In this document: piece after piece, positions 13,268 through 37,472 of the stretch
How the letters are laid out: each line of letters begins with the position of its first letter
How positions within the stretch are numbered: the stretch's first letter is position 1
Source: an uncultured Cytophagales bacterium
Lineage (GTDB): Bacteria; Bacteroidota; Bacteroidia; Cytophagales; 172606-1
Length of the DNA stretch: 64,000 nt
Assembly: GCA_902805615.1 (NCBI GenBank)
Contig: CADCTQ010000208.1
Coordinates: forward strand, 3,574 to 67,573
Direction of reading: 5' to 3'
The notes under the pieces: model-generated
The model's database searches: none
What the model was told of the DNA's origin: nothing
The model's input: only the letters and a program-made list of their open reading frames with translations
Position numbers and translations under genes: made by a program

Positions 13268-14000
13268 ATGAGTTCAACAGGAATACAAAGGCAACGCGCA
13301 CTGGAGTACTGGTTCAATAAGGCGAAACACCTTGCGTTGCCCCCCGCAGGCTTTTCTCCCGCCGGGGAGAAAAAATGTGCCACCCTTGCCTTTCCGGCGG
13401 CGCTTTCGCAAAAACTGAAAGCCGTTTCAAAAGGAGATGCTGCGGTTGAACTGGTGGTGTGCATGGCGGCGCTTTTTGTGCTGCTGGAGAAGTATAATGT
13501 CCGGAAGCCCGTTGTAAGCGCGGTCAACCTCCGTAATCAACCGCCCGACCCGCACGAGCCGCTTGCCTTTTTCAGTGCGGACTGTAGCGGTACCCGTACC
13601 GCGAAGGAAGTCGTCGGCACGATCCAACAACAATTCGGGGAGGCGGTGCGGCATGATTCCTACGACTTGGTCCTGCTTTCCGAAATGCTCACGGTGAACA
13701 ACGCGGGCTCGATCAACTCGTTTTACGCCACCGGGATCGGCCACCGCGCATTCAACGACTGCTCCCCGGAAAGCAAAAGTAAGTTCTCGCTGTACTTCGA
13801 CATTGCCAGCCAGGACGAAGCCTTCGCGCTAACTGTGTACGTGAGCGCCGATCACCAGTTGGGGCACTTTGCCGGGCAGGTTGGCCGTCACTTTATGCGT
13901 TCCCTCCAGGTTGTTCTCACCAGCGCTACCCAGGTATTGAGCCGTTTTTCACTCCTCGATGAGGGGGAAGTGAACGCCCTGGCCGCCGGCAGCAAACGAA
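13268..14000 (+). other. vestigial C-terminal subdomain of a condensation domain at the NRPS-2 N-terminus (no HHxxxDG half)
   Basis: The protein starts MSSTGIQRQRALEYWFNKAKHLALPP... This has the YW...lp / ...LLEKY... layout of the second half of a C domain and runs straight into an A domain (FESQAFTFPDRPAVV). No N-terminal C half or His motif is present. Confidence 0.6.
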
Positions 14001-23000: not shown

Positions 23001-23404
23001 TGATCCCCGAACAGCTTGTTTTCCTGGCGGCGTTCCCGTTGACCCCCAACGGTAAAATTGACCGCAGCGCTTTGCCGGATGCACCCCTACCGCCGGCAAG
23101 TGCCGAGGCGCAGCCAGAGGACGAAACCGAGCGGAAAATTGCCCGGATATGGGAGCAGATACTGGGGGTGCGCGGAATCGGTGCCCACGACAATTTCTTT
23201 GCCATCGGCGGGCATTCACTGAAAGCCCTGCAGGTCGTTTCGAGAATCAACAAAGAATTCGGAGTTGACCTTGAAGTCCGTACCATTTTCGAAAATCCCG
23301 GGCTGCGTAACCTCGCCCACGAACTCAAACGAGCCCTTTGGGTGCTCGAACCGGCGCAGGAAAATACGTTCAGTACAACCATGCATAACGAAATCATTTT
23401 ATGA
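13268..23404 (+). CDS. NRPS-2: dC-A-T-C-A-T-E-C(DCL)-A-T
   Basis: 3378-aa ORF. The N-terminal ~245 aa resembles only the C-terminal half of a C domain. Motifs then follow in order:
- A: YTSGSTGTPKGVRVSH
- T: LGGHSLKG
- C: HHIISDGWS
- A: YTSGSTGKPKG
- T: SGGDSIKAIQV
- E: HHLVIDGVSWRIL
- DCL-type C: YTLSPMQQGLLF, HHILMDGWC
- A: YTSGSSGRPKG
- T: IGGHSLKA
Hand-extracted codes: DAKHSGTINK (no match I know), DSELTAEVCK (no match; acidic positions 239 and 322) and DLFNNALTYK (Ala-type). Confidence 0.97.
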   Translation: MSSTGIQRQRALEYWFNKAKHLALPPAGFSPAGEKKCATLAFPAALSQKLKAVSKGDAAVELVVCMAALFVLLEKYNVRKPVVSAVNLRNQPPDPHEPLAFFSADCSGTRTAKEVVGTIQQQFGEAVRHDSYDLVLLSEMLTVNNAGSINSFYATGIGHRAFNDCSPESKSKFSLYFDIASQDEAFALTVYVSADHQLGHFAGQVGRHFMRSLQVVLTSATQVLSRFSLLDEGEVNALAAGSKRTVAGGSLHALFESQAFTFPDRPAVVDGARTLTYRQLNDRADRLAGYLQSQFAVKPGDAVGLLLDQSHWAVIGILGILKAGATYIPIDPAHPEQRIAYMLRDAAPKVLIANAVPGHADIPVVLLGRDWDKIESAGPLLHHRVPADAHRIAYVIYTSGSTGTPKGVRVSHRAVVNLVEGLVSVMGHAQDWKYVVTAALTFDASVKQIFVPLAIGAELHIPGEREDVGALVRYLRDKRIDAVHATPLFWREILEAVRHSGTKPDLKCISSGGDRLSARLANDLRRCFGEARFYNTYGPTEACINCLAHQVEGHQEGGVPIGRPLPNYEAYILNDNNEVLPPGATGELCVAGEGLAAGYLHRADLTEASFVDNPFASSGKLYKTGDLARWLPDGTVEFLGRKDNQVKIRGVRVEPGEIEAALMAHEQVRAAVVLGTARDSADNVLKAYIIRVQGGGPLDYPAYLRQLLPDYLIPAYFTEMEAFPLTASGKLDVAALPEAALTHYAAPANERELTLQRIWQKVLQRGRIGVHDNFFQLGGHSLKGVQVIAQVNQALGTQSSLRDLFTHPTIASLSTHLASFLGGEPSAIPVVPAARYHPLSNAQRRIWIAQAAGGGSVYNIPGVYELKNLDVKAFEAAFREIIERHESLRTTFAVVDGIPRQVVHPYEALDFALARIDLRYRADARAHCARLAHDEATAVFDLERGPLVRGTLIALDEATHLLLLTLHHIISDGWSMGVMANDLLTRYGSLKNGDGQPLPPLRMQYKDYTAWFEARLNAPQSGRSRSYWLKQFEGELPVLELSAGTRPPVKTLRGASLEFRLERELSEGLHTLGLHHGSTLFMTLLAVVKTLIYRYTNQKDLIIGTPVSGRLHADLENQVGFYVNTIALRTQLAGDETFEHLLRQIRATTLDAYEHQEYPFDLLVESLKLTRHPSRSPLFDVRVEVQQGTNVNLPGFGENGWREARELLSHTTESKDDLHFLFYESAEGLALIVTYNTDLFAAQYIQAMGAHFKMLARSIISDPRQPIRALAYLTEGETDELLHAFNRTQSTYPADKTVAQLFEEQVQKNPAAVAIVHKEHVLTYDELNRKANQLAHYLRNEHGVGCNTLVGVLMNRSHTLIISLLGILKAGACYLPVAVDSPEKRRSYIWSDANVDVVVTETEFMFALGEYSKAIVAVDLQLPALEVADHNPGPTNSAEDLAYIIYTSGSTGKPKGVMITQRSMVNTLTWRNRYYHFDAGVVNLQFPSYSFDSSVEDIFCVLLSGGRLVIPDERERTSVPYVAQLLKAERVTHFLITPSFYKALLAELNHQLSGLKAVTIAGEAVTTDIVEKHYQLLPGVPLVNEYGPTENAVCSSATVLEPGKAITIGKPIANVRICVLDENLALLPKGVVGEICVSGPGLARGYLNNPEMTAAKFLPSPLPGIDRIYRTGDTGRWTDNGELVFHGRNDDQVKIRGYRVEVAEVENAIREAPHVHDAFVLARKGEPRTLVAYVIAGNAGDAHALKSFLARQLPDYMIPAHFVFVASFHLTINGKIDRQALPDPEAEPSRVRTLPRNRIEECLVEIWQDVLGKQAVDVYDNFFVSGGDSIKAIQVASRMNTAGYRIEVADILRQPVIAELGPLVKVAGASADQGAVVGPVPLTPIQQWFFSTYDEHCAHYNQAVLLQTRRRLTREDTLAVFDKLLRQHDALRMVFYKKEGRWFQENKGTGTDVPLIEYDLSGHSEGSLTHFCQKVQSLLDLGEGPAIRVGLFHLAESDRLFIAVHHLVIDGVSWRILFHDLGVLYEQVLSGAPLALPPKTNSFRDWAAYLQDCRQRQLFDPEADYWQRVLRAPSGTLQRDFSGGQNTFAEEASVGFSLHAETTGQLLRESHRAYRTEINDILLAALAGALCQMWRSDQFLVWLEGHGREALASGLDVTRTVGWFTTVYPVVLEMMPDPGAQIITTKENLRRVPNKGVGYGVLKQLASAPLPEPAGPKVLFNYLGRFDEDISKSTFTIAGESAGSAVGRTMDRVYDWTITGIVSGGRLGISVTFSDQMYDAALIRAFCGHYQAALERLIAHCCACSEEVLTPSDFAFKAISTAELAAMGAQYGKIEDVYTLSPMQQGLLFQSLLDKTSGAYFNQMWFDAAGEIDIALVEESLNTLTNRHPALRTAFYRGASEHLQLVLKHRQTEFRYEDIRHLEDWETKQAYMEASRAGDRERAFDLSKDPLMRMAVFRWDDTAYRYLWSHHHILMDGWCVGILVSEYMTIYEGLFHRKPVHLPPSTAYRAYIEWLSRLDTARSLRYWSAYLKEYHELAAVPAVRDHAQTREKYHPETITFQLSAAETAALGALVGKYQVTLNTIVQTIWGCLLGKYNGRKDVVFGAVVSGRPAAIQGIEKMIGLFINTIPVRISWTAETTFEALIKQVQAANLAAEPHHYCSLADIQAQSELKQNLLDHLLVFENYPEESNVNRDRSGALFEVSNVHVHEQTNYHFNLLVATGEALTIKFMFNNRVYDPRFVGRMAGHFRRFVEHVVGHPQVRIDAADVLPPAEREALLNGQYVPGTWPGKQSVAELFSEQAVKCPGGIAVVSEDTVLTYGELDRQTDQLARYLQTEFRVQPNDLVGVLVDRSPLMIVALLGVLKSGAAYVPVDPQYPRDRIDYILSDSNPRLVVTQDKFCNLVGSRTFVRIEDIPGRDAGPARAAGRPAAESVAYVIYTSGSSGRPKGVVLTHANVTAFVGWAQEEFRHSQFDVVYATTSYCFDLSIFEIFYTLSVGKRIRMLPSGLYIQAFLDQDRRVLINTVPSVVEELVGSGADLRNVSVLNMAGEVIPRSLIKKIDCSAMEVRNLYGPSEDTTYSSCYRIRSGDADIPVGKPIGQTRFYVVSEDLALLPQGVPGEICITGAGLAAGYLNQAELTASKFIESPFRAGEKLYRTGDIGYWMADGNLMYVGRKDNQVKLRGYRIELGEVEAALMKNKLVKNAIVSCRLNNRQEKVLVAHLVAEAGFGKAEADAFLQAALPSYMIPEQLVFLAAFPLTPNGKIDRSALPDAPLPPASAEAQPEDETERKIARIWEQILGVRGIGAHDNFFAIGGHSLKALQVVSRINKEFGVDLEVRTIFENPGLRNLAHELKRALWVLEPAQENTFSTTMHNEIIL
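18890..20230 (+). other. epimerization (E) domain of NRPS-2 module 2
   Basis: Preceded by a GGDSI-type T domain. Contains PLTPIQQWFF and HHLVIDGVSWRIL (19280-19300), ends TPSDFAFKAIS, and is followed by a DCL-type C domain. Confidence 0.9.
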
Positions 23405-23570
23405 CAGAAAGTCAATTGATTGATGCGCTGATTGCGGCCGGCATCAAGGTGCAGTTGCTCAATAATGACCAGATAAAGATTACGGTTCCCGACGGTCCTT
23501 ACGACAAAGAGTTGCTGGAAAAGCTGCGGCGGCAGAAATCCGGGGTGGTCGAATACCTGAAAAAGATCGG
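23401..23570 (+). other. TubC-N-like NRPS docking domain
   Basis: MTESQLIDALIAAGIKVQLLNNDQIKITVPDGPYDKELLEKLRRQKSGVVEYLKK follows the pattern of TubC-type N-terminal docking domains (L..L...G..l......l....P.G....EL...L...K..l...L) and precedes the first C domain. Confidence 0.6.
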
Positions 23571-26500
23571 CAGAAGACGCGCCGGTGCCCGCGTGCTGGC
23601 CATCGAGGAACAGGAATACTACAAGCTGTCGAACGCCCAGCAGCGGGTGTGGCTCAAAGCCCGCCTCAGCAACCAGGAAAGCATCGTCCACAACAGCCCG
23701 TTGTCGTACAAGATAAAAGGCTTGGATAAGAACGCCTTTGCGTATGCTTTCCGGCAGTTGATCCACCGGCACGAAATCCTGCGGACGACCTTTATCACCG
23801 TAGCGGGCCAACCCAGGCAAAAGGTGCACGACAGCGCCTCCTTCTATTGCCGGATCGGGGAGGCAGACCTGCGCTGCGACCCGGATCAGGAACAGTCGCT
23901 CAACCGGTTGATGGCCCGGGAAATCAACGCGCGGTTCGACCTCGGGCAAGGGCCGCTGGTCAGGGCGACGCTGGTGCAGGTGGAGGACGACGAGCACGTG
24001 TTCCTGCTGGTCATGCACCACATCGTTATGGACGGGTGGTCTCTTGCCGTGATCGTGAACGAATTGCTGGCGCTGTACCAGGCGTATTGCCTGCAACGCG
24101 AGGACCCGCTGCCGCAACTGCAACTTCAGTACAAGGACTTCGTGCATTGGCAGCACAGGGCCATTACGCAGGAGGACGAAGCGTACTGGCTCGGTGAGAT
24201 CACCGGCGACGTGCCCAGGCTGGCGCTGCCGTCTGATTTTCCGCGGGGCAACCCGAGCAAGTTCAACGGCGGTCAGGTAAGGGTTTTGGTGCCGGCCCGG
24301 CAGGTGGGAACCCTCCGAACGTTTGCCACGGCGCGCAGCACGTCCCTGTCAACCGTTGTGTACTCGGTGTTCAGCATTTTACTGGCGCGCCTGAGCAATC
24401 AACCCCAATTCCTGGTTGGCGTCGCCAACGCCAATCGGAACCACCTTGACCTTGAACACCTGGTAGGTTTTTTCGTCAATACCCTGCTCATCAGGAACAC
24501 CATCGATGAGTCCTGCTCGTTCGAAGCGTACGTGGACCAGGTAACGCAACGGATGCTCAACGCGTTGCAACACCAGAATTACCCCGTTGACTTGCTGGTG
24601 GAGAAACTGAATCCCGAGCGAACCGCCGATCACCAGTCTTTTTTCAACGTCGTTTTCAGCTTCCAGAATTTTGGCGACCTGCGCCTGCCGGCAGGAAACG
24701 CGAACGACACCGCGGCGACCCTCCGGATCGAGGCGTTCCGGAATGATTTCGATTCGATGGAATTCGACCTGGTCTTTACCGTCATGGAATCCGACGGCGG
24801 CCTTTGGGTAAGCTTGCGCTACGACAAAGACGCTTTTTCCGCCGCATCGGTGGAACGGTGGGCGGGCATGTTTATGAAACTGGTTGCGCAGGTGTGCGAC
24901 AGCATGCCCGCCGGACGGCTCCGCCTGGCCGATTTGTCCGTGCTGGCGCCGGACGAGCATGAGCGGCTGGTCAACGCCTTCAACGACAACCGGACGGCGT
25001 ATCCCCGTACCGCAACCGTTCCGGGCCTTTTTCGCGAAGTCGTTGCAAAACACGGGGACAAACCCGCACTTCAATACCGGGGAAAGGTCTGCACCTACCA
25101 GGAACTGGAAGACCGGTCGAACCAGGTAGCCAATCTCCTGCACCAGCACCAGGTACAGACCGAAGACCGCGTTCTCCTGTTGATGGACCCCTCCGACGAG
25201 GCCATTGCCATCCTGCTGGGCATTCTCAAGGCTGGGGGGGCCTACGTTTTCATCAATCCGGATTACCCGGTCCGGAGAATCAACTACATCGCCGAAGACA
25301 CGGGCGCAAGGATCATTTTTTCCGAAAAGAAATACCTGCCCCTGATCGGGGAAATGCAGAAAAGCGGCAATGCTCCCGGCACCGTAGTGTACGTTGACGA
25401 TGAAGCGGACCTTGCGCACCTGAACGGCCGGGATACCCGCTACGCGCCGCCCGTGGTCACGGGCGACTGCCTCGCGTACATCACGTACACGTCGGGTTCG
25501 ACGGGTTATCCCAAGGGCGTATTGGTGGAGCATCGGGGCGTGGTCCGGCTGGTCAGGCAAACAAACTACATTGATATCCGTGACACCGACACCGTGGCCC
25601 AGACCGCGCCCATCGCTTTCGACGCGTCCACGTTCGAGATCTGGGGGGCGCTGCTTAACGGCGCCAAGTTGCACTTGCTCGACCCGCATGCGCTGCTGAA
25701 TGCGAAGCTCCTGCGAAGTTTCATGCGCGACAACGGCATCACCATTTGCTGGCTGACTTCCTCCCTGTTCAACCGGCTTGCCGACCTGGATGTCGAAATC
25801 TTTGCCCCGTTGCGGACTTTGCTGGTGGGCGGCGAGGCTTTGTCGGCGGCCCACGTCAACAAGGTACTCGGGGCGCACAAAGCCCTCACCCTCATCAATG
25901 GATACGGCCCCACGGAAAACACCACTTTCTCCAGTTGCTGGCCGGTTGAGCGGGAGTACGCCGCGGACATTCCCATCGGCAGGCCGGTAGCCAACAGCCA
26001 GTGCTACGTGCTCGATGACGCACGCCGGGTACAACCGATTGGCGTCGTGGGCGAGCTTTTTGTCGGGGGCGACGGCCTGGCCCGGGGCTACCTGAATGCT
26101 CCCGAGTTGACCCACGCAAAGTTTATCCGATCTCCCTTCGGGGGAGGGGAACGGTTGTACAGCACCGGCGACCAGGTGCGCTGGACGGAAGCGGGAATCC
26201 TTGAGTATAAAGGAAGGCGTGACCAGCAGGTGAAGATACGCGGATTCCGCATCGAGTTGAAAGAGGTCGAAGCGGTGATCAAACGCATCCCCGGCGTACG
26301 GGAGGCCGTCGTGGTGGAAGACCGGGACCAGGACCAGGAAAAATACCTGCAAGGCTATTTTACGTCGCCGGAGCACCTTTCGCCGAACGACGTCAGGAAA
26401 CAGATTGCCGGGTTCCTGCCGGCGTACATGGTGCCGGCGCAAATGCTCCAGGTCGATGCCATTCCGTTGCTGCCCAACGGCAAGGCAGACCACCGGGCAC

Positions 26501-29500
26501 TGCGAAACCTCAGGTTGCAGCTTAAATACGACCTGGCCGGCGACATTCAATTAAGCAGCACCGAAACAACCCTCCGGGCCATTTGGGAAAATATGCTGGA
26601 CCGGAAGAACATCCGGCCGGAAGATGACTTTTTCGAACTGGGCGGCCACAGCCTCAAAGCCGTCATGGTCGCCGCCTTGGTCTCGAAAGAGCTGGGAATC
26701 GACGTCGACATGAGTGCCCTCTTTAAGCATACGACCATTCGCGCCCTGGGCCGCGCCCTGGATGCGCAAATTCCGCAGAGGGGCCACGAAGCGATTCCCG
26801 GCATTGAAGAACAAGCCCACTACCCGCTTTCCCACGCGCAAAAAAGACTGTGGGTGCTCGAGCACGCCGGTACCGGCACGAGTGCTTACAACATGGGGTT
26901 TGCCTTCCTGCTGCGGGGGGCGGACTACGCCGTACTGGCCGGTGCCTTGCAGCGGGTGGTTGCCAGGCACGAAATCCTGCGGACGGTATTCAAAGTCATT
27001 GACGGCGAACCCCGGCAACGCGTGCTGCCACCGGATGTGCCGTTCCGGGTGCCTTGCGTTGATCTCGGGCACCTTGCCGATGGGATATCGTTGGCGAGGG
27101 AATCCGTTAAACGGGATGCGGACACCTTGTTCGACCTGGAAAACGGCCCGCTGCTGAGGGCGAAGCTTATCCGGGTGGATGACCACGCGCACGTCCTGTT
27201 CCTGGGGATGCACCACATCATTGCCGATGGCTGGTCAATGGATGTGCTCTTCAAGGAAATTGCCTCCTCCTACAATGCCATCCTGACGGGCGAGCCCTTG
27301 ACGCTGGACCCGCTCGCGGTGCAGTACAAAGATTTTACAGTGTGGCAGAACAAGCAACTCAGCGACGATCACTTCAGTGCGCACCGGCAGTACTGGCTCG
27401 ACACTTTCCGGGGCGACATTCCCGTACTGCCCTTGACCACCGACCGCCCGAGGCCCGCGCGGCAAACCTACCACGGCGACAAAGTAAGCATTGACCTCGA
27501 ACCGGCCCTGTGCGATCAGCTGAAAGCCATGGGGGTGGAGCGTTCGGCCAGTCTGTTCATGCTGCTGCTGGCGTCGGTGAAAACGTTTTTGCTGCGTTAT
27601 ACGGGGCAGGAAGACATCGTAGTGGGTACGGTTACCGCCGGCCGCAGCCACGTGGGGCTTAACAACCAGATTGGGTATTATCTAAACACGCTGCCCCTGC
27701 GCACGCGGTTGTCCGGCCGGGATACGTTCCTGGACGCCGTTGGCAAAGTCAGAAAGGCAACCCTCGACGCATTCAACCACGAAGGGTATCCTTTCGACAA
27801 ACTGGTGAGGGAGCTTGCATTGGACCGGGATCCCGGCCGGTTTCCGTTATTCGACGTGCTGGTAGCCCTGCAGAACGCCCCGGACGCGTCGGCCAGTTAC
27901 CCGATGCACAACGTACAGGTGTCGGCTTTCGATTTCGGCGCCACGCAGCACAGTAAGTTTGACCTCTCATTCATCTTTTCGGAGCAGGGGCCTGCGGTCA
28001 CCTGTGCGGTGGAATACAATACCGATCTTTTCGACCCGAACCGAATCGAGCGGCTGGCCCGCCACTACTTGCAGTTTCTGCGGGCAGTGCTGGCGTCGCC
28101 CGAAGCTGCCGTTGCGGCCCTGGCTTACACCACCGGAACCGAGCGCCGCCAGTTGGTGCAGCAGTTTTGCGGGGGAGAGGCTGTCGCCGTACCAAATTCT
28201 TTCATCGAAACCTTCGAGCAACGGGTTGCCGCCCACCCGCAGCGGGCCGCGATCCGGTACCAGGACCGCTCCATCAGCTACGAAGCATTGAACGCGGCGG
28301 CCAATAAAGTTGCCAACCATTTCCGGCAACAGTACGGGATCAGGCCCGACGATCTGGTCGGCGTGATGGTAGAACGGTCGCCCGAACTAATCATCGCGTT
28401 GCTGGCAATCCTGAAGTGCCGGGCGGCCTTCGTCGCCCTGGAGACAGCGTTTCCCAGGAAAAGAATGGAATATATGCTGTCGGATACCGGCATCGGCTTA
28501 CTGGTAACCGGTTCTGACAACCTGTTCAATCTCGACTTTTTCCAGGGCAACCTCTTCTGCATCGACCTGGAGCTGCCGCAGTTGGCGTCGTCGGCCGAAA
28601 ACCCCGCGGCCGATCAGACGGAAAATCCGCTGGCTTACGTCCTGTATACTTCCGGCACTACCGGCACCCCCAAGGGCGTGCAAATCGGCGCGGCCAGCCT
28701 GATGAATTACTTACAGTGGGCAAACAAACGCTACCTGGGTGACCTCGATAAGGCAGTGTTCGCCGTGTTTTCGCCGGTAACTTTTGACCTGACGCTTACC
28801 AGCATCTTTGCGCCGTTGGCCGGCGGGCATACCTTGAGGATATTCCCCCACCATTTGCCGGTGAACGAAGTCCTGTCAGAAGTGTTCGGCCACGGGAGTG
28901 ATGTTGCCGTGGTGAAGCTGACGCCCTCCCACCTCGACCTGCTGAACCTGTTAGACCTGCCCGAAACGGACGTGAAGAACGTGATCGTCGGCGGGGAAGC
29001 CCTGCTCGACCGGCACGTACAAACCCTGCGAAAGCTGAATCCTTCCGTCAAGATCTTTAACGAATACGGACCCACCGAGACCACCATCGGCTGCACCGTA
29101 GCCGAAGTGCTCGGGCAAATCCACATTGGCCGCCCCATCGACAACACCAACATTTACATCCTGGATGCGGACCTGCAACTGGCGGCCGTGGGCGTGCCCG
29201 GAGAGATTTGCATCGGCGGCGCCGCGGTCGGCGAGGGGTACTTGAACCGGGCCGAACTGACTCAGCAAAAGTTCATTGCCTACGCGGGGGAAGACGGCCG
29301 CACCGACCGGCTCTACCGGTCAGGCGACATGGGATACTGGACGCCCGGTGGCGACATCCGGTTGATGGGCCGGAAGGATGCGCAGGTAAAAGTGCGCGGA
29401 TTCAGGATAGAAACCGCTGAGGTGGAGCGCGTGCTGGTGAATCACCCGGCGGTAGCCCTGGCGCACGTGTACGTTACAAAGGACGCAACCCGCGAGCCGC

Positions 29501-32289
29501 GGCTCAGCGCGGCGATCCACCCCACCGACGACCAGGCGTTTACGCTGAACCGGTTGCTGCACCTGAGAAAGCACAATCCGAAGGCCGCCGACAAACTGTA
29601 CCAGTTGCCCAATGGCATGGTCGTCTGTCATAACAACAAGAACGAAACGGACCTGGTGTATTTCGAAATTTTTGAAGACCTCACCTATCTCAAATACGGC
29701 ATCGAGATCAACGCCGGGGACGTGGTCGTTGATGTCGGGGCCAACATCGGTCTTTTTTCATTGTTCGTAGGCAACCATTTCCCCGGCACCAAAATCTACA
29801 GTTTTGAACCGGTGGCACCCGTGTATGAGGTGCTTAAAGTAAATTTATCGCTGTACGACATCCAGGCGACTCCTTTCAATGCCGGCATGGGCGATAAGCG
29901 CGAAAAAGTAACCTTTCAGTACTATCCCAACAACACCGTTTTATCGGGGCGTTTCGGCAGCGCGGACGAAAAGGTGAACGTCAAGAAGTACGTTCAAAAC
30001 CGCGCCGCCTTCGACCGGCTCAGTATTTCCGATGACCAAATCGACGCCCTGATTGAAGAACGGGTGCTGTCGGAAGAAGTGGAATGTGAGCTGACGGCCT
30101 TGTCCGACTTTATCCGTGAGCAATCCCTGACCTGCATCGACCTGCTTAAGATCGACGCCGAGAAAAGCGAGCTGAACATCATCCGGGGCATCCGCGAAGA
30201 GGATTGGCGCAAGATAAAGCAGGTCCTCATCGAGGTGCACGACATCGGCGACAGCATCAGTGAAATAGAATTCATCCTGAGGGCGCAAGGCTTCCAGGTT
30301 CAGCGGGACCAGGACGACCTGCTGCAAGGCACCGACATCTACAACCTGTATGCCTCCCGCAAGCCGCTTAAAGACAAACACGCCGTACTAACACCCGCCA
30401 AAGCATTCAATGCAAACGGCAACTGGACCCTCGGCGATGCCCTTATCAATGAGCTGAAGGCTTTCTGCAAGGACTACCTGCCGGAATACATGATTCCGTC
30501 CCAATTCGTTCTGGTGGATCACATTCCGCTGACGGCCAACGGCAAGCTCGACCTGAAGGCCATTGGCGCAATGGAAACGCCGCAACCGCCCACCGTGGAC
30601 GAAGGGTACGCGACCTGGACCCATACCCAGAAGGTCCTGGCGGCGATCTGGACCGGGATTGTTGGCAAGCAGCACGTCAAATTATCGGACGACTTTTTCA
30701 AAATCGGCGGGCATTCCCTGAACTCGGTTCAGTTGATTGCCAGGATTCAACACCACTTCAACAAGGTGCTTTCGGTAGCGGATGTGTTTAAGCACTCCAC
30801 CCTGGAGCAGCTTTCCCGAATCGTTGAGGCAAAACCGGCGTCGGCTTCCAATCCGATAACCCCCATTGAGGAGCAGGAGTTTTATGAGATGTCTCACACC
30901 CAGAAAAGGATCTGGCTGTCGAGCCAACTGGAAGAAAACCGCCTCATCTACAATATACTCTCGGCGCACGAAATCAAGGGGCTCAACGTGGACGCTTTCA
31001 TGCGGGCCCTGTCGTGCATCATCCTCCGGCACGAGATCCTGCGGACCACTTTTAAGGAGTTGAACGGGGCACCCCGGCAGTTCGTCAACCGTGCCCCGCA
31101 GCCGGCCAGTTACGTGTGCACGATCAAACTACCCGCTGAACAGCGGAGAGAGCTGATCAAAGCTGAAGCGGCCCGGTTGTTTGACCTGGAAAACGGACCG
31201 CTGTTACACGTTACCATTGCCGATGCGGGCAACGACAGCCACCTGGTCGTGCTGACGATGCACCACATCATCAGTGACGGATGGTCCTTGGACGTTTTCT
31301 TTAAGGAGTTCATTGCCTTGTATGACCTGATCGTGGATGGAAAAGAAAAAGCAATGATCCCCCTGCGCATCCACTACAAGGACTACACGGCGTGGCAGAA
31401 AGCGCAACTGAACGGGGAGGTTTTTGAGCGGCTCGGGTTGTTCTGGCACCACAAACTAGGCAAACAGATCGTGGCGCTGAATTTCACGCCGGATTTTCCA
31501 AGGCCGGCCATCCAGACCTTCAACGCGAACAGGATATCAATGGTGCTCGACAGCGAGCTGACCCGGCAGATCAGGAGTTTTACGCGCACACGTGACACTA
31601 CTCTGTTCATGATGTTCACTTCGGTCATGTACATCCTGTTCCGCTACTACACCGGGGAAGATGACATCATCATCGGAACGCCGGTGGGAGGCCGGGAGAA
31701 CCTGGCCCTCGAAAATCAGATCGGTCCGTACATCAATACGTTGCCCGTACGCTTCCGGACCGACGTGCAGGCAGATTTCGAGCAGCACCTCAAAAATGTG
31801 CGCGCGGATATTTTGTCGATGTACGATCACCAGGCTTACCCGTTCGATCTGATGCTGAATGCGCCCGGGGTGACCATTGACCGGGCGCGGTCGCCCCTGT
31901 TCGACGTAGGGTTTACCTGGCAGAATACCGACGGGATTTCGGGCGAATCAGCGTACAAAGCCCACCGGTCCCTGGAGATTGAGGGGGTAGAAGTACAGGC
32001 AGAAAGGGTTAAGACCGACTTCTGGTTCCACGCCTGGGAGGAGGGGGAGTCGGTAGTTTTCAGTCTCATGTACAACGCCAATCTGTACAAAAAGGCCACG
32101 TGCGAAAACCTGCTGAGCGATTACAGAACGTTGATTACCCAGCTCATCCTCAAGCCCGGGGTTCCGGTTGAAGACCAGTTGGACGGATTGCGCCAGAAAA
32201 AACTGGATCGGCAATCGGCCGCGGCGCACAGTGCCTACAACAGCAACCTGCAGAAGCTATTGCAGTTTACCACAACCCAGAAAGACTAA
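23401..32289 (+). CDS. NRPS-3: docking-C-A-T-C-A(FkbM-type MT insert)-T-C
   Basis: 2962-aa ORF. Its ATG overlaps the NRPS-2 stop (ATGA at 23401-23404). Motifs, in order:
- C: HHIVMDGWS
- A: YTSGSTGYPKGVLVEH
- T: LGGHSLKA
- C: HHIIADGWS
- A: YTSGTTGTPKG, interrupted by a methyltransferase domain
- T: IGGHSLNS
- terminal C: HHIISDGWS
Hand-extracted codes: DAFWLGGTFK (Val-type) and DLTKIGEIGK (Asp/Asn-type). Confidence 0.97.
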   Translation: MTESQLIDALIAAGIKVQLLNNDQIKITVPDGPYDKELLEKLRRQKSGVVEYLKKIGRRRAGARVLAIEEQEYYKLSNAQQRVWLKARLSNQESIVHNSPLSYKIKGLDKNAFAYAFRQLIHRHEILRTTFITVAGQPRQKVHDSASFYCRIGEADLRCDPDQEQSLNRLMAREINARFDLGQGPLVRATLVQVEDDEHVFLLVMHHIVMDGWSLAVIVNELLALYQAYCLQREDPLPQLQLQYKDFVHWQHRAITQEDEAYWLGEITGDVPRLALPSDFPRGNPSKFNGGQVRVLVPARQVGTLRTFATARSTSLSTVVYSVFSILLARLSNQPQFLVGVANANRNHLDLEHLVGFFVNTLLIRNTIDESCSFEAYVDQVTQRMLNALQHQNYPVDLLVEKLNPERTADHQSFFNVVFSFQNFGDLRLPAGNANDTAATLRIEAFRNDFDSMEFDLVFTVMESDGGLWVSLRYDKDAFSAASVERWAGMFMKLVAQVCDSMPAGRLRLADLSVLAPDEHERLVNAFNDNRTAYPRTATVPGLFREVVAKHGDKPALQYRGKVCTYQELEDRSNQVANLLHQHQVQTEDRVLLLMDPSDEAIAILLGILKAGGAYVFINPDYPVRRINYIAEDTGARIIFSEKKYLPLIGEMQKSGNAPGTVVYVDDEADLAHLNGRDTRYAPPVVTGDCLAYITYTSGSTGYPKGVLVEHRGVVRLVRQTNYIDIRDTDTVAQTAPIAFDASTFEIWGALLNGAKLHLLDPHALLNAKLLRSFMRDNGITICWLTSSLFNRLADLDVEIFAPLRTLLVGGEALSAAHVNKVLGAHKALTLINGYGPTENTTFSSCWPVEREYAADIPIGRPVANSQCYVLDDARRVQPIGVVGELFVGGDGLARGYLNAPELTHAKFIRSPFGGGERLYSTGDQVRWTEAGILEYKGRRDQQVKIRGFRIELKEVEAVIKRIPGVREAVVVEDRDQDQEKYLQGYFTSPEHLSPNDVRKQIAGFLPAYMVPAQMLQVDAIPLLPNGKADHRALRNLRLQLKYDLAGDIQLSSTETTLRAIWENMLDRKNIRPEDDFFELGGHSLKAVMVAALVSKELGIDVDMSALFKHTTIRALGRALDAQIPQRGHEAIPGIEEQAHYPLSHAQKRLWVLEHAGTGTSAYNMGFAFLLRGADYAVLAGALQRVVARHEILRTVFKVIDGEPRQRVLPPDVPFRVPCVDLGHLADGISLARESVKRDADTLFDLENGPLLRAKLIRVDDHAHVLFLGMHHIIADGWSMDVLFKEIASSYNAILTGEPLTLDPLAVQYKDFTVWQNKQLSDDHFSAHRQYWLDTFRGDIPVLPLTTDRPRPARQTYHGDKVSIDLEPALCDQLKAMGVERSASLFMLLLASVKTFLLRYTGQEDIVVGTVTAGRSHVGLNNQIGYYLNTLPLRTRLSGRDTFLDAVGKVRKATLDAFNHEGYPFDKLVRELALDRDPGRFPLFDVLVALQNAPDASASYPMHNVQVSAFDFGATQHSKFDLSFIFSEQGPAVTCAVEYNTDLFDPNRIERLARHYLQFLRAVLASPEAAVAALAYTTGTERRQLVQQFCGGEAVAVPNSFIETFEQRVAAHPQRAAIRYQDRSISYEALNAAANKVANHFRQQYGIRPDDLVGVMVERSPELIIALLAILKCRAAFVALETAFPRKRMEYMLSDTGIGLLVTGSDNLFNLDFFQGNLFCIDLELPQLASSAENPAADQTENPLAYVLYTSGTTGTPKGVQIGAASLMNYLQWANKRYLGDLDKAVFAVFSPVTFDLTLTSIFAPLAGGHTLRIFPHHLPVNEVLSEVFGHGSDVAVVKLTPSHLDLLNLLDLPETDVKNVIVGGEALLDRHVQTLRKLNPSVKIFNEYGPTETTIGCTVAEVLGQIHIGRPIDNTNIYILDADLQLAAVGVPGEICIGGAAVGEGYLNRAELTQQKFIAYAGEDGRTDRLYRSGDMGYWTPGGDIRLMGRKDAQVKVRGFRIETAEVERVLVNHPAVALAHVYVTKDATREPRLSAAIHPTDDQAFTLNRLLHLRKHNPKAADKLYQLPNGMVVCHNNKNETDLVYFEIFEDLTYLKYGIEINAGDVVVDVGANIGLFSLFVGNHFPGTKIYSFEPVAPVYEVLKVNLSLYDIQATPFNAGMGDKREKVTFQYYPNNTVLSGRFGSADEKVNVKKYVQNRAAFDRLSISDDQIDALIEERVLSEEVECELTALSDFIREQSLTCIDLLKIDAEKSELNIIRGIREEDWRKIKQVLIEVHDIGDSISEIEFILRAQGFQVQRDQDDLLQGTDIYNLYASRKPLKDKHAVLTPAKAFNANGNWTLGDALINELKAFCKDYLPEYMIPSQFVLVDHIPLTANGKLDLKAIGAMETPQPPTVDEGYATWTHTQKVLAAIWTGIVGKQHVKLSDDFFKIGGHSLNSVQLIARIQHHFNKVLSVADVFKHSTLEQLSRIVEAKPASASNPITPIEEQEFYEMSHTQKRIWLSSQLEENRLIYNILSAHEIKGLNVDAFMRALSCIILRHEILRTTFKELNGAPRQFVNRAPQPASYVCTIKLPAEQRRELIKAEAARLFDLENGPLLHVTIADAGNDSHLVVLTMHHIISDGWSLDVFFKEFIALYDLIVDGKEKAMIPLRIHYKDYTAWQKAQLNGEVFERLGLFWHHKLGKQIVALNFTPDFPRPAIQTFNANRISMVLDSELTRQIRSFTRTRDTTLFMMFTSVMYILFRYYTGEDDIIIGTPVGGRENLALENQIGPYINTLPVRFRTDVQADFEQHLKNVRADILSMYDHQAYPFDLMLNAPGVTIDRARSPLFDVGFTWQNTDGISGESAYKAHRSLEIEGVEVQAERVKTDFWFHAWEEGESVVFSLMYNANLYKKATCENLLSDYRTLITQLILKPGVPVEDQLDGLRQKKLDRQSAAAHSAYNSNLQKLLQFTTTQKD
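29500..30440 (+). other. FkbM-family (Methyltransf_21-like) methyltransferase domain inserted between A8 and A9 of the NRPS-3 second A domain
   Basis: About 300 aa lie between A8 (GRKDAQVKVRGFRIETAEVE, ~29365-29425) and A9/A10 (LPEYMIP at 30478-30498; NGKLD). The insert contains VVDVGANIGLFS (29722-29757), KIYSFEPV and IDLLKIDAEKSELNIIRG, the FkbM-type signature. Confidence 0.85.
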
Positions 32290-32378: not shown

Positions 32379-32789
32379 ATGCATACGATGAAAAAGAAAG
32401 CCTATATCGCTCTTTCGAAAATACCGAGCGCCGGCAATGGACTATTCGCCAAAATGATTATTCGGCCCAACGAACTGATCGAAGACAACGCAGTCGCAGT
32501 CACGCGTTACGACAACCCTACCGCCCTGCGCCTGATGAAAGAGTTTAACCTCAACTACGTGGAAGACCAGTACCTGGCCTTCGAATGGGGGGAGCGGGAA
32601 AAGTACCTGACGTTCTGCCAGGGACTGATCCAGTACGTGAATCATTCGGACGCACCCAATACCCGGGTGGAGCGTGACTACGTGAATAACCGGCTCAGGC
32701 TTTACTCGTTGCGCGAAATTTCAAAAGACGAAGAATTTACGCACTACTACGTGGACCGCGACGAATACATCAAAAACAACAAGTTCTGA
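32379..32789 (+). CDS. SET-domain protein (putative protein/peptide lysine methyltransferase-like)
   Basis: 136 aa. SET hallmarks: IPSAGNGLFAKMIIRPNELI (GxG region), YVNHSDAPNTRV (NHSxxPN) and REISKDEEFTHYY (EELxxxY). Alternative start at 32388 (MKKK). Confidence 0.75.
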   Translation: MHTMKKKAYIALSKIPSAGNGLFAKMIIRPNELIEDNAVAVTRYDNPTALRLMKEFNLNYVEDQYLAFEWGEREKYLTFCQGLIQYVNHSDAPNTRVERDYVNNRLRLYSLREISKDEEFTHYYVDRDEYIKNNKF

Positions 32790-32923: not shown

Positions 32924-34549
32924 ATGGATATGGAACAGCAACTCTTCTTAAAACCCAATGTAGTCATCGAACCTTTGTTTGATAAATGGTACGCCTGGCC
33001 TCACCTGATTTCGCCCGCCACTGCCGCACTCAACATCCTTGACCGGCATTTGAAAATCATGAACTCATACGTTCAGGCGCCCCAGATCCACGCCGCGGCG
33101 GTTAAGAATCCGAAGATGTTGGGAGGGCCGTTCATGGACCTGGGCGGCAAGCGCGTGGAGGAAGTAAAGGAACTGAAAGCCAACACCCTGGCGCGGCAGC
33201 AGGACCTTATTGAACTGGCCCATGCCATCAAGCAACTCAATAAAATGCTGAAGGAGTCGGCAAAGGGCTATTCGTTGGAAGGTTTGTACGAAAAAGTCCC
33301 TGATCCCCTGAAAGGGTACGTTGAACTGGTGTATGACCTGAACCACAATCCCTCGTTCAGATTCTACGAAAGCCTGTTGTACAACAGCAAGTATTATAAA
33401 CCATCGTCGCAGAGCGTTGCCCTGTGGCTGACCGAAAACGACGAACGTCCCTTCGTGTTAAGTACGCCCCGGCTGCCCGACGACAAGGTACTGCACCTGG
33501 ACATGCCGTTCGCCCACCCCGGCATTGATGAATTGTCGAAGATGAGGCGGCTGCCCAACACCTTGTCGCACATCCGTAAAGTGTTGCCGCTTTCCGGAAA
33601 GGATGAAAAACTGCTGGAGACTTTTTTTACGACCGATCCCTACATTCCTTACAAAAAATACGAGGGCGACAGCATCAGGATGCGCTACTTCGGGCACGCC
33701 TGTATTCTTATCGAGACGAAAGATGTCTCCGTGCTGGTGGACCCGTTGATCAGCTATTACGGGTACATGAGCAGTATCAATCATTTTTCCGACTACGACC
33801 TTCCCGATACCATTGACTACGTGCTCATCACGCATAACCACCAGGACCACATCCTCTTCGAGACGCTGCTTCCGCTAAGGCACCGGATCAAGCACCTGGT
33901 GGTGCCGAGAACAACCAGTGGCGCGTTGCAGGACCCCAACCTCAAATACATGTTCAACGCCATTGGCTTCCGCAACGTCATTGAGATCGGCGACATGGAG
34001 CAACTCACTTTCAGTGATTGCGTGATCACGGGTATTCCTTTCATCGGTGAGCACAGTGACCTGAACATCCAGGCTAAAATCTGTCACCACATCAGGATCG
34101 GCCAGTTCTCGGTGCTGTTCGTGGCTGATTCCTGCAACATCGAACCGCGGTTGTACCAGCACATTCACGCCCAGACGGGAGACGTTGACGTCTTATTCCT
34201 CGGAATGGAGTGTGAGGGGGCGCCGCTTTCCTGGTTATACGGTCCATTGCTGCCCGAGGAAATGGAACGCGACAAGGATTTTTCAAGAACACTGTCAGGC
34301 TCCAATTTCAAGCGGGGAAAGGCGCTGGTAGACGTCTTCAACCCCCGTGAGGTGTACGTCTACGCCATGGGACTGGAGCCCTGGCTGGAGTTCATCAGCA
34401 GCAAACGGTACACCGACCAGGACCACCCAATCAAGGAGTCAGGAAACCTGGTGACCTATTGCAGAAGCAAAAATATCGTTTCTGAACGCCTGTTCGGGGA
34501 GAAAGAGCTGATGCGTGAAAAATACCTTGAACCCGCGCTGGTGAACTAG
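32924..34549 (+). CDS. CmlA-like non-heme diiron beta-hydroxylase (metallo-beta-lactamase fold) for carrier-bound amino acids
   Basis: 541 aa, close to the CmlA length class. It has an N-terminal non-MBL domain followed by an MBL-fold core with FGHACILIE, VLITHNHQDH (HxHxDH), IGEHSD and FVADSC. Confidence 0.75.
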   Translation: MDMEQQLFLKPNVVIEPLFDKWYAWPHLISPATAALNILDRHLKIMNSYVQAPQIHAAAVKNPKMLGGPFMDLGGKRVEEVKELKANTLARQQDLIELAHAIKQLNKMLKESAKGYSLEGLYEKVPDPLKGYVELVYDLNHNPSFRFYESLLYNSKYYKPSSQSVALWLTENDERPFVLSTPRLPDDKVLHLDMPFAHPGIDELSKMRRLPNTLSHIRKVLPLSGKDEKLLETFFTTDPYIPYKKYEGDSIRMRYFGHACILIETKDVSVLVDPLISYYGYMSSINHFSDYDLPDTIDYVLITHNHQDHILFETLLPLRHRIKHLVVPRTTSGALQDPNLKYMFNAIGFRNVIEIGDMEQLTFSDCVITGIPFIGEHSDLNIQAKICHHIRIGQFSVLFVADSCNIEPRLYQHIHAQTGDVDVLFLGMECEGAPLSWLYGPLLPEEMERDKDFSRTLSGSNFKRGKALVDVFNPREVYVYAMGLEPWLEFISSKRYTDQDHPIKESGNLVTYCRSKNIVSERLFGEKELMREKYLEPALVN

Positions 34550-34597: not shown

Positions 34598-36319
34598 ATG
34601 ACAATTTGCGGAATAAAGTTGACTCACGATGGGGCAATTGCGCTTATCGATAACGGGAAGTTGATTTTTTCCATTGAAATGGAAAAACTTGACAACAACA
34701 AGCGCCACGCAGCTTTTAACCTGACGCTTGAAAAGATCAACGCCCTGATGGGCGAGTACGGGTACAGCCTGGACGAGCTGGACCGCCTGGTGATCGACGG
34801 CTGGGGCAATGAGCTGAACCCCGCCGGCGACGGAAGCAAAAACTATTCACTGGACGTGAGTTTGCGGGGAACCGACAAACTGACCATCGGCCTGGCCTCG
34901 TACGGCCACTTGGTGGCCGATGAAGACCTGCTCAAAGGCTTGGCCTTTCATTACAACGTGGATGGATTTGAGCTGAGATACAACAGCTACCCGCACGCCG
35001 CCGGGCACATCTTAGGCGCTTATTGTACAAGCCCCTTTGCCAGTCGGAACGAAGATTCCTTCGTGTTGGTCTGGGATGGCGGCATGCCCCCGCAGCTTTT
35101 TTACTACCGGTGTCAAGAAAATAAAGTAGAAAATCTCGGCCCGTTATTCCTGCTGATGGGATTCATCTACATTAATTTTCCCCATGCGTTCGAACCCTTC
35201 AGCAAGTTGCCCAAGGACCTCTCGATTGCCGGCAAAGCCATGGCCTACATCGCACTCGGCAACGTGCAGGGTGAACTGTTACAAGTGTACAGGCAAACGT
35301 TCGCAGCGGTGCTCAACGAGGCGAAAGACCTGCGGGTGACGCCCGAGCTGTGCGTCATTGTAACGCAGGAATTCATTAAAAACGCCACGACCCCCGCAAT
35401 CAGGAGCCAGTATACGTCGGATGACATGCTCACCACCTTTCACGCCTTCATGGAAGAATTGCTGGTTGAAAGCATCGGACGGAAAGTAAAGGACTATCCC
35501 GGCTATAAAAGGAATCTGTGTTTTGCCGGAGGATGCGCCTTGAACATAAAATGGAACAGCGCCCTGCGCGAAAGCAAGCTCTTTGAAGGCGTGTGGGTGC
35601 CGCCTTTTCCCAACGATGCGGGCAGCGCCATCGGTACCGCGTGCTGCGAGATGGTCAATCAGGGTATGCGCAGCCTGGCGTGGAACGTATACAGCGGGCC
35701 GGCCCTGAGGGTATCCGGGATGGACCAAGGCTGGCAAGCGGCCAAGTGCTCCGTTGAAGAACTGGCACGTATGCTGCACGAAGTAGGAGAGCCGGTCGTC
35801 GTCCTGAACGGACGGGCAGAACTAGGCCCGCGTGCGCTTGGGAACCGAAGCATTGTAGCGCCGGCGACTGACTTTGGCATGAAGCAACTCCTGAACACAA
35901 TCAAGGTCCGGGAGCATTACCGTCCCGTGGCTCCGATCTGCCTGGAGCAGGATGCACCCGCCATTTTTGACCCGGGTTCCCCCGACCCTTTCATGTTATA
36001 CGACCATTTGGTGAGGCCGGATTGGCTGGCAAAGATCCCGGCCGTGTGTCACCTGGACCAGACGGCCCGCCTGCAAACGGTAAACGCTGCCGATAACCCG
36101 GTCATTTATAACTTGCTGACCTGTTACAAGGCGCTCAGCGGAATTCCCCTGTTGTGTAACACCAGCGCCAACTTCAAAGGGAAAGGTTTTTTTCCCGATG
36201 CCGAAAGCGCGATGACGTGGGGAATGGTCAACTACGTTTGGAGTGAGGGCATTCTGTTCACGAAAGCCGGAAAAGACCAATGGACGGCAGTAAGTCGGCT
36301 GCAATCAGAAAAAATATAA
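34598..36319 (+). CDS. NodU/CmcH-family carbamoyltransferase
   Basis: 573 aa. Motifs: MTICGIKLTHDGAIALIDNGKLIFSIEMEKLDNNKRH (N-terminal motif), FAGGCALNIKWN, GRAELGPRALGNRSI, KVREHYRPVAP, HLDQTARLQTV and LCNTSANFKG. Confidence 0.9.
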   Translation: MTICGIKLTHDGAIALIDNGKLIFSIEMEKLDNNKRHAAFNLTLEKINALMGEYGYSLDELDRLVIDGWGNELNPAGDGSKNYSLDVSLRGTDKLTIGLASYGHLVADEDLLKGLAFHYNVDGFELRYNSYPHAAGHILGAYCTSPFASRNEDSFVLVWDGGMPPQLFYYRCQENKVENLGPLFLLMGFIYINFPHAFEPFSKLPKDLSIAGKAMAYIALGNVQGELLQVYRQTFAAVLNEAKDLRVTPELCVIVTQEFIKNATTPAIRSQYTSDDMLTTFHAFMEELLVESIGRKVKDYPGYKRNLCFAGGCALNIKWNSALRESKLFEGVWVPPFPNDAGSAIGTACCEMVNQGMRSLAWNVYSGPALRVSGMDQGWQAAKCSVEELARMLHEVGEPVVVLNGRAELGPRALGNRSIVAPATDFGMKQLLNTIKVREHYRPVAPICLEQDAPAIFDPGSPDPFMLYDHLVRPDWLAKIPAVCHLDQTARLQTVNAADNPVIYNLLTCYKALSGIPLLCNTSANFKGKGFFPDAESAMTWGMVNYVWSEGILFTKAGKDQWTAVSRLQSEKI

Positions 36320-36434: not shown

Positions 36435-37472
36435 ATGGAAACCCACAACGCATTGGCTCTGCCTGAAAATACGCTCCGCCCGTTTCTGTGGGTGGAGCAG
36501 CAATCTTGTGCGCTCCGGACGCGTGCCGGGCTACCCGGAATACCGGCGGGCGACATACCCGGATTGCCTCTGGTGATCGCCGCGGGAAACAAAGACGTTG
36601 ATTTAAGCGCCTGGATGAGCGAGAACAGGGCCGAACTCCGACAACTGCTGAGGAAGTGCGGCGGGATTCTGTTCAGGGGGTTTGGTATCCGGTCCTCGGG
36701 TGACTTCAAGGCTTTGGTGACCCAGTGGAGTGGCAGACAGATGGAATACTTCGACCAAACTTCCCCCAGAAGCCTGATTGACGACGCCGTGTATACCTCC
36801 ACCGACTACCCGTCCGATCAACGCATCAAAATGCACAACGAGCTTTCGTATGCCCACCGGTGGCCGCTGGAGATATTCTTTTTTTGCGTGCAGCCCGCCG
36901 ACGCAGGGGGCGAAACGCCCATCGCCGACTGCCGGAAAGTGCTTTCGAAATTAAGCAAAAGGACACTGGAAAAATTCTCGGCGAAAGGAGTGATGTACGT
37001 CAGGAACATGATTGATGGCCTGGGGCTTTCCTGGCAGCGGGTTTACCAAACGGATGATCCCGAAAAAGTAAATGCACACTGTACCAGGAATGGGATCCGC
37101 TTCGCGTGGAAAGGCGAAGATCACCTTAAAACGGTTTGGACCAGGCCGGCGGTCGGCAAGCACCCGGTTACCGGTGAAGCCACCTGGTTTAATCACGCCT
37201 ATTTCTATAACATTCTGTCAACCAACCCTTTGTTGCTCGACTTGGTCGACGATAAGGACGAGTTGCCATTTAACACCTATTACGGCGACGGGTCGGAGAT
37301 TGAACCGGAGGTGATCGAAGAGATCGGCGGCGCGTTCGACAACACCCGCGTCACGTTTACATGGGAGACGGGAGACCTGCTCCTGCTGGACAATATGCTG
37401 ACTGCGCACGGCAGAAGTTCCTACACGGGTCAGCGTAAAGTTCTCGTTTCCATGTGCGAGCCCGTGTTCTGA
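36435..37472 (+). CDS. TauD/TfdA-family Fe(II)/2-oxoglutarate dioxygenase, SyrP-like (putative aspartyl beta-hydroxylase)
   Basis: 345 aa. Motifs: GGILFRGFGI, YTSTDYPSDQRIKMHNELSY (HxE facial-triad part), FFFCVQPADAGGETPIADCRKV, WFNHAYF and LTAHGR. Confidence 0.85.
   Translation: METHNALALPENTLRPFLWVEQQSCALRTRAGLPGIPAGDIPGLPLVIAAGNKDVDLSAWMSENRAELRQLLRKCGGILFRGFGIRSSGDFKALVTQWSGRQMEYFDQTSPRSLIDDAVYTSTDYPSDQRIKMHNELSYAHRWPLEIFFFCVQPADAGGETPIADCRKVLSKLSKRTLEKFSAKGVMYVRNMIDGLGLSWQRVYQTDDPEKVNAHCTRNGIRFAWKGEDHLKTVWTRPAVGKHPVTGEATWFNHAYFYNILSTNPLLLDLVDDKDELPFNTYYGDGSEIEPEVIEEIGGAFDNTRVTFTWETGDLLLLDNMLTAHGRSSYTGQRKVLVSMCEPVF

Follow-up and report, generated by a model that had tools for sequence, protein, structure and literature searches.

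An FkbM-type methyltransferase embedded in an Asn-type adenylation domain of a Cytophagales nonribosomal peptide synthetase: a candidate route to β-methoxy-Asn

The stretch of DNA analysed here, referred to throughout as the window, comprises 64 kb (64,000 nucleotides) of contig CADCTQ010000208.1 from an uncultured Cytophagales bacterium. It is nearly all one nonribosomal peptide synthetase (NRPS) cluster, and the genes and domains described below lie on the + strand. This analysis concerns the NRPS gene N3 (23401-32289), whose 2,962-amino-acid (aa) product has the architecture dock-C-A(Val)-T-C-A(Asn-like)[MT]-T-C (dock, docking domain; C, condensation; A, adenylation; T, carrier; MT, methyltransferase), and in particular the second A domain of N3, which is interrupted by the methyltransferase. 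Pfam searches of the protein returned three Condensation, two AMP-binding and two PP-binding domains, Methyltransf_21 and a TubC_N docking domain, and the reading frame is intact, with no stops across its 2,962 codons.

Module 2 of N3 opens with a C domain (26812-28158; Pfam Condensation at aa 1138-1586, covering the full profile) which retains the HHxxxDG motif as HHIIADG (27211-27231) and is the best Condensation stretch of the protein. It is followed by the N-terminal part of the A domain, containing motifs a2 to a8, from approximately 28186 to 29523: A2 is at 28411, A3 at 28642, the sequence FDLTLTS at 28783, A5 at 29059, A6 at 29200, A7 at 29314 and A8 at 29368-29412. This part ends at the A/M boundary RLSAAIHP, with which the start at 29500 proposed in an initial annotation of the window coincides exactly. 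The embedded methyltransferase occupies 29524-30438 (Pfam core 29731-30297), and the C-terminal remainder of the A domain follows at 30439-30576, where a motif scan located a9 (LPEYMIP) at 30478 and a10 (NGKLD) at 30538. The carrier domain (30628-30825, approximate limits) bears its phosphopantetheine serine within FFKIGGHSL (30694-30720), and the terminal C domain of N3 (30865-32205, approximate limits), the third Condensation stretch, displays HHIISDG at 31261-31281. All A motifs from a2 to a10 and the carrier serine of module 2 are thus present in the motif scan.

The size of the insertion follows from the spacing of the motifs on either side of it. A distance of 370 aa separates A8 (GRKDAQVKVRGFRIE, aa 1990) from A9 (LPEYMIP, aa 2360). 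In the four uninterrupted A domains for which both motifs could be located in the window, the two lie 66-68 aa apart. Approximately 303 aa are therefore inserted between a8 and a9, which is where the initial annotation had placed the methyltransferase.

The same annotation had described the insert as FkbM-type, and profile searches bear this out. Pfam Methyltransf_21/FkbM (PF05050) matches aa 2111-2299 of the whole protein with an E-value of 1.9e-18 and the isolated insert with 71.7 bits (E 1.1e-19, cut-off 22.7), and the NCBIfam model TIGR01444 (fkbM_fam) gives 89.7 bits (cut-off 37.7). In BLASTP comparisons the insert aligns end to end with FkbM (34% identity, E 2e-58), LptK (33%, E 3e-49) and CymP (29%, E 1e-39). 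An alignment of eight sequences, consisting of the window domain as the first sequence and seven homologues, contains 38 invariant columns, and the insert carries all of them, including DxGANIG, FE, DLLK and ExH. The strings by which the domain had originally been recognized, VVDVGANIGLFS, FEPV and IDLLKIDAEKSE, are all found in the insert. Its closest relatives share 45% identity in the protein database and 48% in Genome Taxonomy Database (GTDB) representative genomes, while the scan of Joint Genome Institute (JGI) metagenomes contained no close relatives. Exact look-ups returned no record of the N3 protein, and matched the TauD protein encoded downstream of N3 only on Logan contigs from runs ERR3870344, ERR10032606 and ERR10032681.

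The alignment also served as input to an AlphaFold2 model, which shows a Rossmann-type fold with high confidence (predicted local distance difference test score, pLDDT, 89.1; predicted template modelling score, pTM, 0.87). A PDB sequence search with the insert gave no match at E <= 1, and the best fold match of the model in a Foldseek search of the PDB is 2PY6, an FkbM methyltransferase (template modelling score ~0.5), the other matches being class I methyltransferases. In the model, the conserved glutamate after strand 2 falls at what would be the class I site for the ribose of S-adenosylmethionine (SAM), and the DVGANIG motif is kept. The SAM-binding site thus displays no degeneration in the structural model. 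Judged from its sequence, the insert is an intact FkbM-family methyltransferase domain.

Lundy, Mori and Garneau-Tsodikova in 2020 divided interrupted A domains into seven families with six types of methyltransferase (M) domain (PMC8341866). In their scheme, an M domain of type II is inserted between a8 and a9, measures 290 +/- 13 aa and has six motifs (i-vi), with the SAM motif (V/I)(F/I/V)DVGx(N/H)xG(L/M)F(S/T)L, in which DVGx(N/H)xG is unusual (PMC8341866). It defines family 2a, typified by KtzH and comprising 149 NCBI sequences in 2020, and also forms the O-methylating half of ColG (PMC8341866). The six type II motifs are found in the N3 insert at 29665, 29725, 29806, 29914, 30136 and 30205: four agree exactly with the consensus (EIFEDLTYLKYG, VVDVGANIGLFSL, IDLLKIDAEKSE and WRKIKQVLIEVH), FQYYPNNTVLSG deviates at one position and EPVAPVYEVLKVN at two. 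With ~303 aa (the gap of 370 minus ~67), the insert lies at the upper edge of the type II size range. Insert and host together are, on these sequence features, a family 2a interrupted A domain with a type II M domain, a design which has already been published. The initial annotation was right to set the FkbM type apart from the N-methylating majority, as N-methylating types account for ~69% of the interrupted A domains counted and type II for ~14% (PMC8341866), although the FkbM type is not rare.

The small departures from the consensus raise the question of whether the embedded domain is an inactive relic, in which case the module would incorporate Asn that is unmodified or at most hydroxylated. 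Slight deviations from the published consensus do occur in motif iii (EPVAPVYEVLKVN) and motif iv (FQYYP...), and a motif scan of all six frames of the window revealed no gene for an MbtH-like protein, the partner on which characterized interrupted A domains, KtzH and TioS among them, depend. The MbtH-like partner of N3 may be encoded beyond the window. All family-invariant residues are kept, the frame is uninterrupted and the AlphaFold2 model is confident and well folded; moreover, the same EPVAPV variant of motif iii occurs in an Asn-coded relative (L032, see below). We consider a relic very unlikely.

The substrate is where N3 differs from the described members of the family. Family 2a is labelled Ms(O,Ser/Thr) and was described for Ser/Thr hosts (PMC8341866), whereas the interrupted domain of N3 has the Asn-like code DLTKIGEIG and not DVWH.. 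(Ser) or DFWN.. (Thr). The domain KtzH(A8-MII-A9)4 from the kutzneride pathway shares with N3 module 2 the a8-a9 site, the size class, the six motifs including DVGxNxG and membership in PF05050, a likeness judged by site, size, motifs and PF05050 listing. The residue loaded by KtzH is Ser, which already has the hydroxyl to be methylated, whereas a module with an Asn-type code needs a hydroxyl installed beforehand by another enzyme. FrsG (FR900359) and ColG, of family 5a, contain the same type II/PF05050 domain at a8-a9 as their O-methylating half, but with an additional N-methylating domain back-to-back, and they act on Thr or Ser. In a survey of the MIBiG database, PF05050 matches include the NRPSs KtzH, FrsG, the aurantimycin NRPS, OciA and AmbE (PMC9259500 supplement). 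Our literature searches for an embedded methyltransferase in an Asn or Asp module found none. N3 module 2 is an Asx-type (Asp or Asn) variant of a known bifunctional A domain and not a new kind, a modest extension.

The specificity codes were read from an alignment of every A domain in the window with a GrsA reference segment; as a control, the GrsA code DAWTIAAIC was reproduced. This alignment gave DLTKIGEIG(K) for the interrupted domain, the same as the hand-read code of the initial annotation, and its characterization there as an Asx-type code lying between those canonical for Asp and for Asn was confirmed. The domain has Glu at position 322, the only one in the cluster to do so: the A domains of N4, N5-A2 and N6-A1 have the standard Asp-type code DLTK[IL]GHIG with His322. 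We take Glu322 to be the residue of Asn codes and His322 that of Asp codes, and a β-cyano-Ala residue derives from Asn. The code DLTKIGEVGK, one residue off, is reported for an A domain giving β-cyano-Ala (PMC12283262), and a search of published text for the exact code DLTKIGEIGK turned up only this neighbour. On account of Glu322, set against His322 in the Asp modules of the cluster, and of the DLTKIGEVGK neighbour, the substrate of the interrupted domain is inferred to be Asn. Alternatively, the A domain may activate Asp, and hydroxylation followed by O-methylation would then yield 3-methoxy-aspartate, the residue of A54145, here through a methyltransferase acting in cis. Leu236 is common to this code and the Asp code, codes of the DLTKVGHVGK type have been reported for Asp as well as for Asn, the two sets of codes overlap in published surveys (PMC12283262), LptK is homologous to the insert and, as described below, six Asp-coded hosts carry the same type of methyltransferase, three with an adjacent TauD gene. 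We regard Asp as unlikely, if the most credible of the alternatives, given that the three A domains with the standard Asp code all have His322 and only the interrupted one has Glu322.

Conversion of either substrate to a methoxy residue would require a hydroxylase, and the two β-hydroxylase genes that the initial annotation had noted are both confirmed. They lie in the interval between N3 and N4, which holds a 136-aa SET-domain open reading frame (ORF), a CmlA-like gene, a carbamoyltransferase and a TauD-family oxygenase. The CmlA-like diiron β-hydroxylase (32924-34549) is supported by Pfam CmlA_N (E 1.6e-100) and metallo-beta-lactamase domains, and by PDB sequence matches to 8A90 (E 1e-128) and CmlA (E 1e-112); a literature search on the identity of 8A90 returned no relevant match. 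The TauD-family Fe/2-oxoglutarate oxygenase (36435-37472; Pfam TauD, E 9e-45) directly precedes N4 (37538-42010), a synthetase in which a weakly C-like domain precedes A(Asp, DLTKIGHIG)-T-C and a methyltransferase is lacking. The N-terminal 440 aa of N4 match Condensation weakly (69.6 bits), with no HHxxxDG found. Since the TauD gene directly precedes this weak-C cassette and N3 module 2 is in-line with a catalytic C domain, we tentatively favour the CmlA-like enzyme as the one serving N3 Asn and TauD as the one serving N4 Asp. The carbamoyltransferase (34598-36319; Pfam Carbam_trans_N and Carbam_trans_C) could use one of the installed hydroxyls, namely the one other than that on N3 Asn.

We surveyed 159 loci that encode relatives of the insert, 79 of them in GTDB representative genomes and 80 in JGI metagenomes. 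The host A-domain code was extracted for each embedded copy, giving 72 related loci with a code, and the loci were searched with the TauD and CmlA-like proteins of the window within flanks of 6-8 kb. The hosts, counted with the window excluded, are Ser/Thr-coded at 27 loci, Glu-coded at 13, Asp-coded at six (L005, L015, L029, L044, L088 and L110), Asn-coded at four (L032, L087, L090 and L159), Gln-like at four and otherwise coded at 17. There are thus ten Asx-coded and 17 Glx-coded (Glu or Gln) relatives, and with the window the Asn-coded group has five members. The Asx-coded hosts are mostly from Acidobacteriota and soil metagenomes. By its code, the window is one of a recurring set of Asx-coded hosts which, as far as we found, has no characterized member.

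Hydroxylase genes accompany hosts with Asx or Glx codes far more often than the Ser/Thr-coded ones: a TauD or CmlA homologue is present in the flanks of 17 of 28 Asx/Glx-coded hosts and of 2 of 27 Ser/Thr-coded hosts (Fisher p = 4e-5, uncorrected for relatedness). The usual Asx/Glx layout is a TauD gene, then a gene that starts with a C-like domain lacking HHxxxDG, then A[MT]-T (for example L005, L087, L088 and L090). TauD with a non-catalytic C-like domain resembles the arrangement with an 'interface domain' described for siderophore Asp β-hydroxylases. N4 is this cassette (TauD, weak C-like domain, Asp-coded A domain) minus the methyltransferase. Among the Asn-coded relatives, L087 and L090 (code DLTKIGEVG) have TauD upstream, and L032 combines a TauD fused to its upstream NRPS with a second just downstream; TauD is adjacent in three of the six Asp-coded hosts. 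At a further locus, L021, a CmlA-like gene overlaps the stop codon of an A[MT]-T-C gene.

Two other groups stood out in the survey. One or two TauD genes adjoin the embedded-MT host at seven Glu-coded loci (L018, L067, L076, L084, L096, L104 and L115) and at three Gln-coded loci (L094, L098 and L108). Because Glx-coded loci with TauD repeat the pattern of AmbE, AmbC and AmbD, discussed below, this comparison suggests that chemistry like that of L-2-amino-4-methoxy-3-butenoic acid (AMB), or methoxy-Glx chemistry, may be widespread in Micromonospora, Acidobacteriota and soil metagenomes. At L043, L047, L064, L081, L102, L130 and L158 the host code is unusual and ends in Q[LM]GM[IV]W; its start reads GIDQ/GVDQ or DFLQ/DFFQ according to the alignment used, the first positions being uncertain.

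Taking code, domain and neighbourhood together, we lean somewhat towards the reading that N3 module 2 is a working in-line C-A[MT]-T elongation module which installs β-methoxy-Asn. In this route the split A domain would activate L-Asn, as its code implies, and load it onto its own carrier. A β-hydroxylase acting in trans would then hydroxylate the carrier-bound Asn at C3; of the two candidates, the diiron CmlA-like enzyme encoded two genes downstream is the more likely and TauD the alternative. The FkbM-type methyltransferase, riding the a8-a9 loop of the mobile C-terminal subdomain of the A domain, would O-methylate the C3 hydroxyl with SAM while the residue is still carrier-bound, as its family and the precedents suggest, and the terminal C domain of N3 would join the peptide to the next residue.

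Three known systems each provide part of this route. LptK, the free-standing FkbM-family enzyme to which the insert is homologous over its full length, has a β-hydroxylated Asx residue as its acceptor. The O-methylation that gives the 3-methoxy-Asp of A54145 was assigned to it from product structure only (PMC9259500 supplement). Unlike the N3 domain, it stands outside any A domain as a protein of its own, and it acts on Asp rather than Asn. The mechanistic model for N3 is AmbE from the AMB pathway, where carrier-bound Glu is first hydroxylated by AmbC and AmbD, after which the methyltransferase embedded in AmbE O-methylates the 4-hydroxyl (PMC10880069). AmbE and N3 share a PF05050 methyltransferase that is built into an NRPS and acts, or in N3 would act, on a hydroxyl installed in trans. 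The AMB route uses Glu, methylates the 4-hydroxyl, continues with dehydration and decarboxylation and employs two TauD-type enzymes, whereas N3 has an Asx substrate and an expected β-hydroxyl, and a CmlA-type diiron enzyme is also available to it. In cystobactamid biosynthesis CysJ β-hydroxylates carrier-bound L-Asn and CysQ O-methylates it to β-methoxy-L-Asn (PMC7966384), the same chemistry as predicted for N3 module 2. However, CysQ acts in trans; CysH, a module standing on its own, carries an AMDH insert in place of a methyltransferase, and the residue is shuttled from it to the assembly line. In our literature searches, β-methoxy-Asx residues were traced only to free-standing methyltransferases (LptK and CysQ).

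Several observations weigh against β-methoxy-Asn. N3 departs from the commonest layout, in which a TauD gene immediately precedes a non-catalytic C-like domain and then A(MT)-T: module 2 follows a T domain, has a catalytic C domain and has no hydroxylase gene directly upstream, and the SET-domain ORF sits between N3 and the CmlA-like gene. Hydroxylase genes are absent within 8 kb of the closest architectural analogue, L159, which is in-line and has the Asn code DATKVGEVG. The co-occurrence of hydroxylases with Asx/Glx-coded hosts may also partly reflect shared ancestry, which the statistic leaves uncorrected. Among the methyltransferase domains of the survey, no motif marks those of the hydroxy-Asx/Glx type as opposed to the Ser/Thr type, and a neighbour-joining tree of the domains shows no grouping by host code. 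Finally, a single code position decides between Asp and Asn, and the literature assigns at least one code to both amino acids.

We also considered whether the methyltransferase could act on the Asx side chain itself, by N-methylation of the Asn carboxamide or esterification of the Asp carboxylate; to our knowledge, neither regiochemistry has been shown for an FkbM-type domain embedded in an A domain, and we hold the two together to be improbable. The initial annotation had named either a 3-methoxy-Asp/Asn residue or a side-chain methyl ester as the plausible product. The comparative evidence favours 3-methoxy-Asx, and the ester is less likely because the host code has Glu322, unlike the His322 of the Asp modules in the cluster. 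Esterification to an Asp β-methyl ester would need no hydroxylase, and it would suit the occurrence of the same methyltransferase type in A domains with Asp or Glu codes, where a carboxylate is available, and the 11 of 28 Asx/Glx-coded loci in whose flanks no hydroxylase was seen. Many of these loci are short contigs, however, and the strong enrichment of hydroxylase genes beside Asx/Glx-coded hosts, together with the Asn-type code of N3, makes an ester a poor prospect. It also sits badly with the family, as in the MIBiG survey every member to which a role is assigned acts on hydroxyls, one N-methylase excepted (PMC9259500).

That exception, EreM, N-methylates backbone amides and is the only N-methylating member reported (PMC9259500). 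It provides a precedent for N-methylation of the Asn side-chain carboxamide, and Asn does offer an amide nitrogen and no hydroxyl. The two hydroxylases of the cluster and the hydroxylase-linked Asn-coded relatives fit O-methylation instead, and with EreM standing alone in the family we rate carboxamide N-methylation the least probable of the outcomes considered.

N3 does not contain the only interrupted A domain of the window: as initially annotated, there are two, with different insertion sites, a8-a9 in N3 and a6-a7 in N6. The second A domain of N6 (host code DGGVVVAVY) has ~340 aa between a6 (DGELYLSGVGIARGY) and a7 (YKTGD), at 60872-61898. This insert holds a class I methyltransferase (Pfam Methyltransf_11), and its motifs GIDFGFGNA, GACMKGLDWSPYFV, DFATSTLLLDR and GGRFAIQTLLP correspond to those of the type VI M domain found in family 6, whose site is a6-a7. 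In 2020 family 6 comprised 14 sequences, with no characterized member (PMC8341866). The type VI interruption in N6 is arguably rarer than the type II interruption in N3.

The remaining synthetases of the cluster are N1 (385-13128), which starts with an acyl-ligase-like A domain followed by a carrier domain, N2 (13268-23404), N5 (44713-55737) and N6, which opens near 55.8 kb and extends past the end of the window; a MacB/FtsX-type permease gene lies downstream of N4. Because N1 opens with the acyl-ligase-like A domain and carrier, the modules point to a probable lipopeptide product, at least 15 residues long. The codes predict two Lys-like residues, Ala, Val, Asn and three Asp, and the window holds at least 15 ordinary amino-acid modules, a number for which we rejected a cluster of the cystobactamid/albicidin type. 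A sponge peptide of the theopapuamide type was rejected because the predicted order of residues does not match. The SET-domain protein (32379-32789, 136 aa; PF00856, 38.8 bits, E 1.4e-9) is unusual in an NRPS cluster, and its target might be the two Lys-like modules of N1 (code DTESIGTVC). The G+C content falls from ~0.61-0.63 in the A-domain core (28900-29500) to 0.52-0.54 in the MT insert (29500-30300), is ~0.53-0.57 from the insert to the end of N3 and ~0.50 in the intergenic and SET region beyond. As it falls at the insert and stays low thereafter, base composition hints at a mosaic origin of the 3' part of N3.

The present finding leaves thinking on how interrupted A domains work unchanged. 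It does show the "Ser/Thr" label of type II M domains to be too narrow, as the same domain is found across public genomes and metagenomes in Asp-, Asn-, Glu- and Gln-coded A domains, in most cases beside a hydroxylase gene. It also offers enzymologists a compact A[MT]-T construct and yields a rule for genome mining, by which an Asx or Glx code, an embedded FkbM-type methyltransferase and a nearby hydroxylase would together point to a methoxy amino acid. If the prediction for N3 module 2 is true, β-methoxy-Asn would in this bacterium be made wholly on the assembly line.

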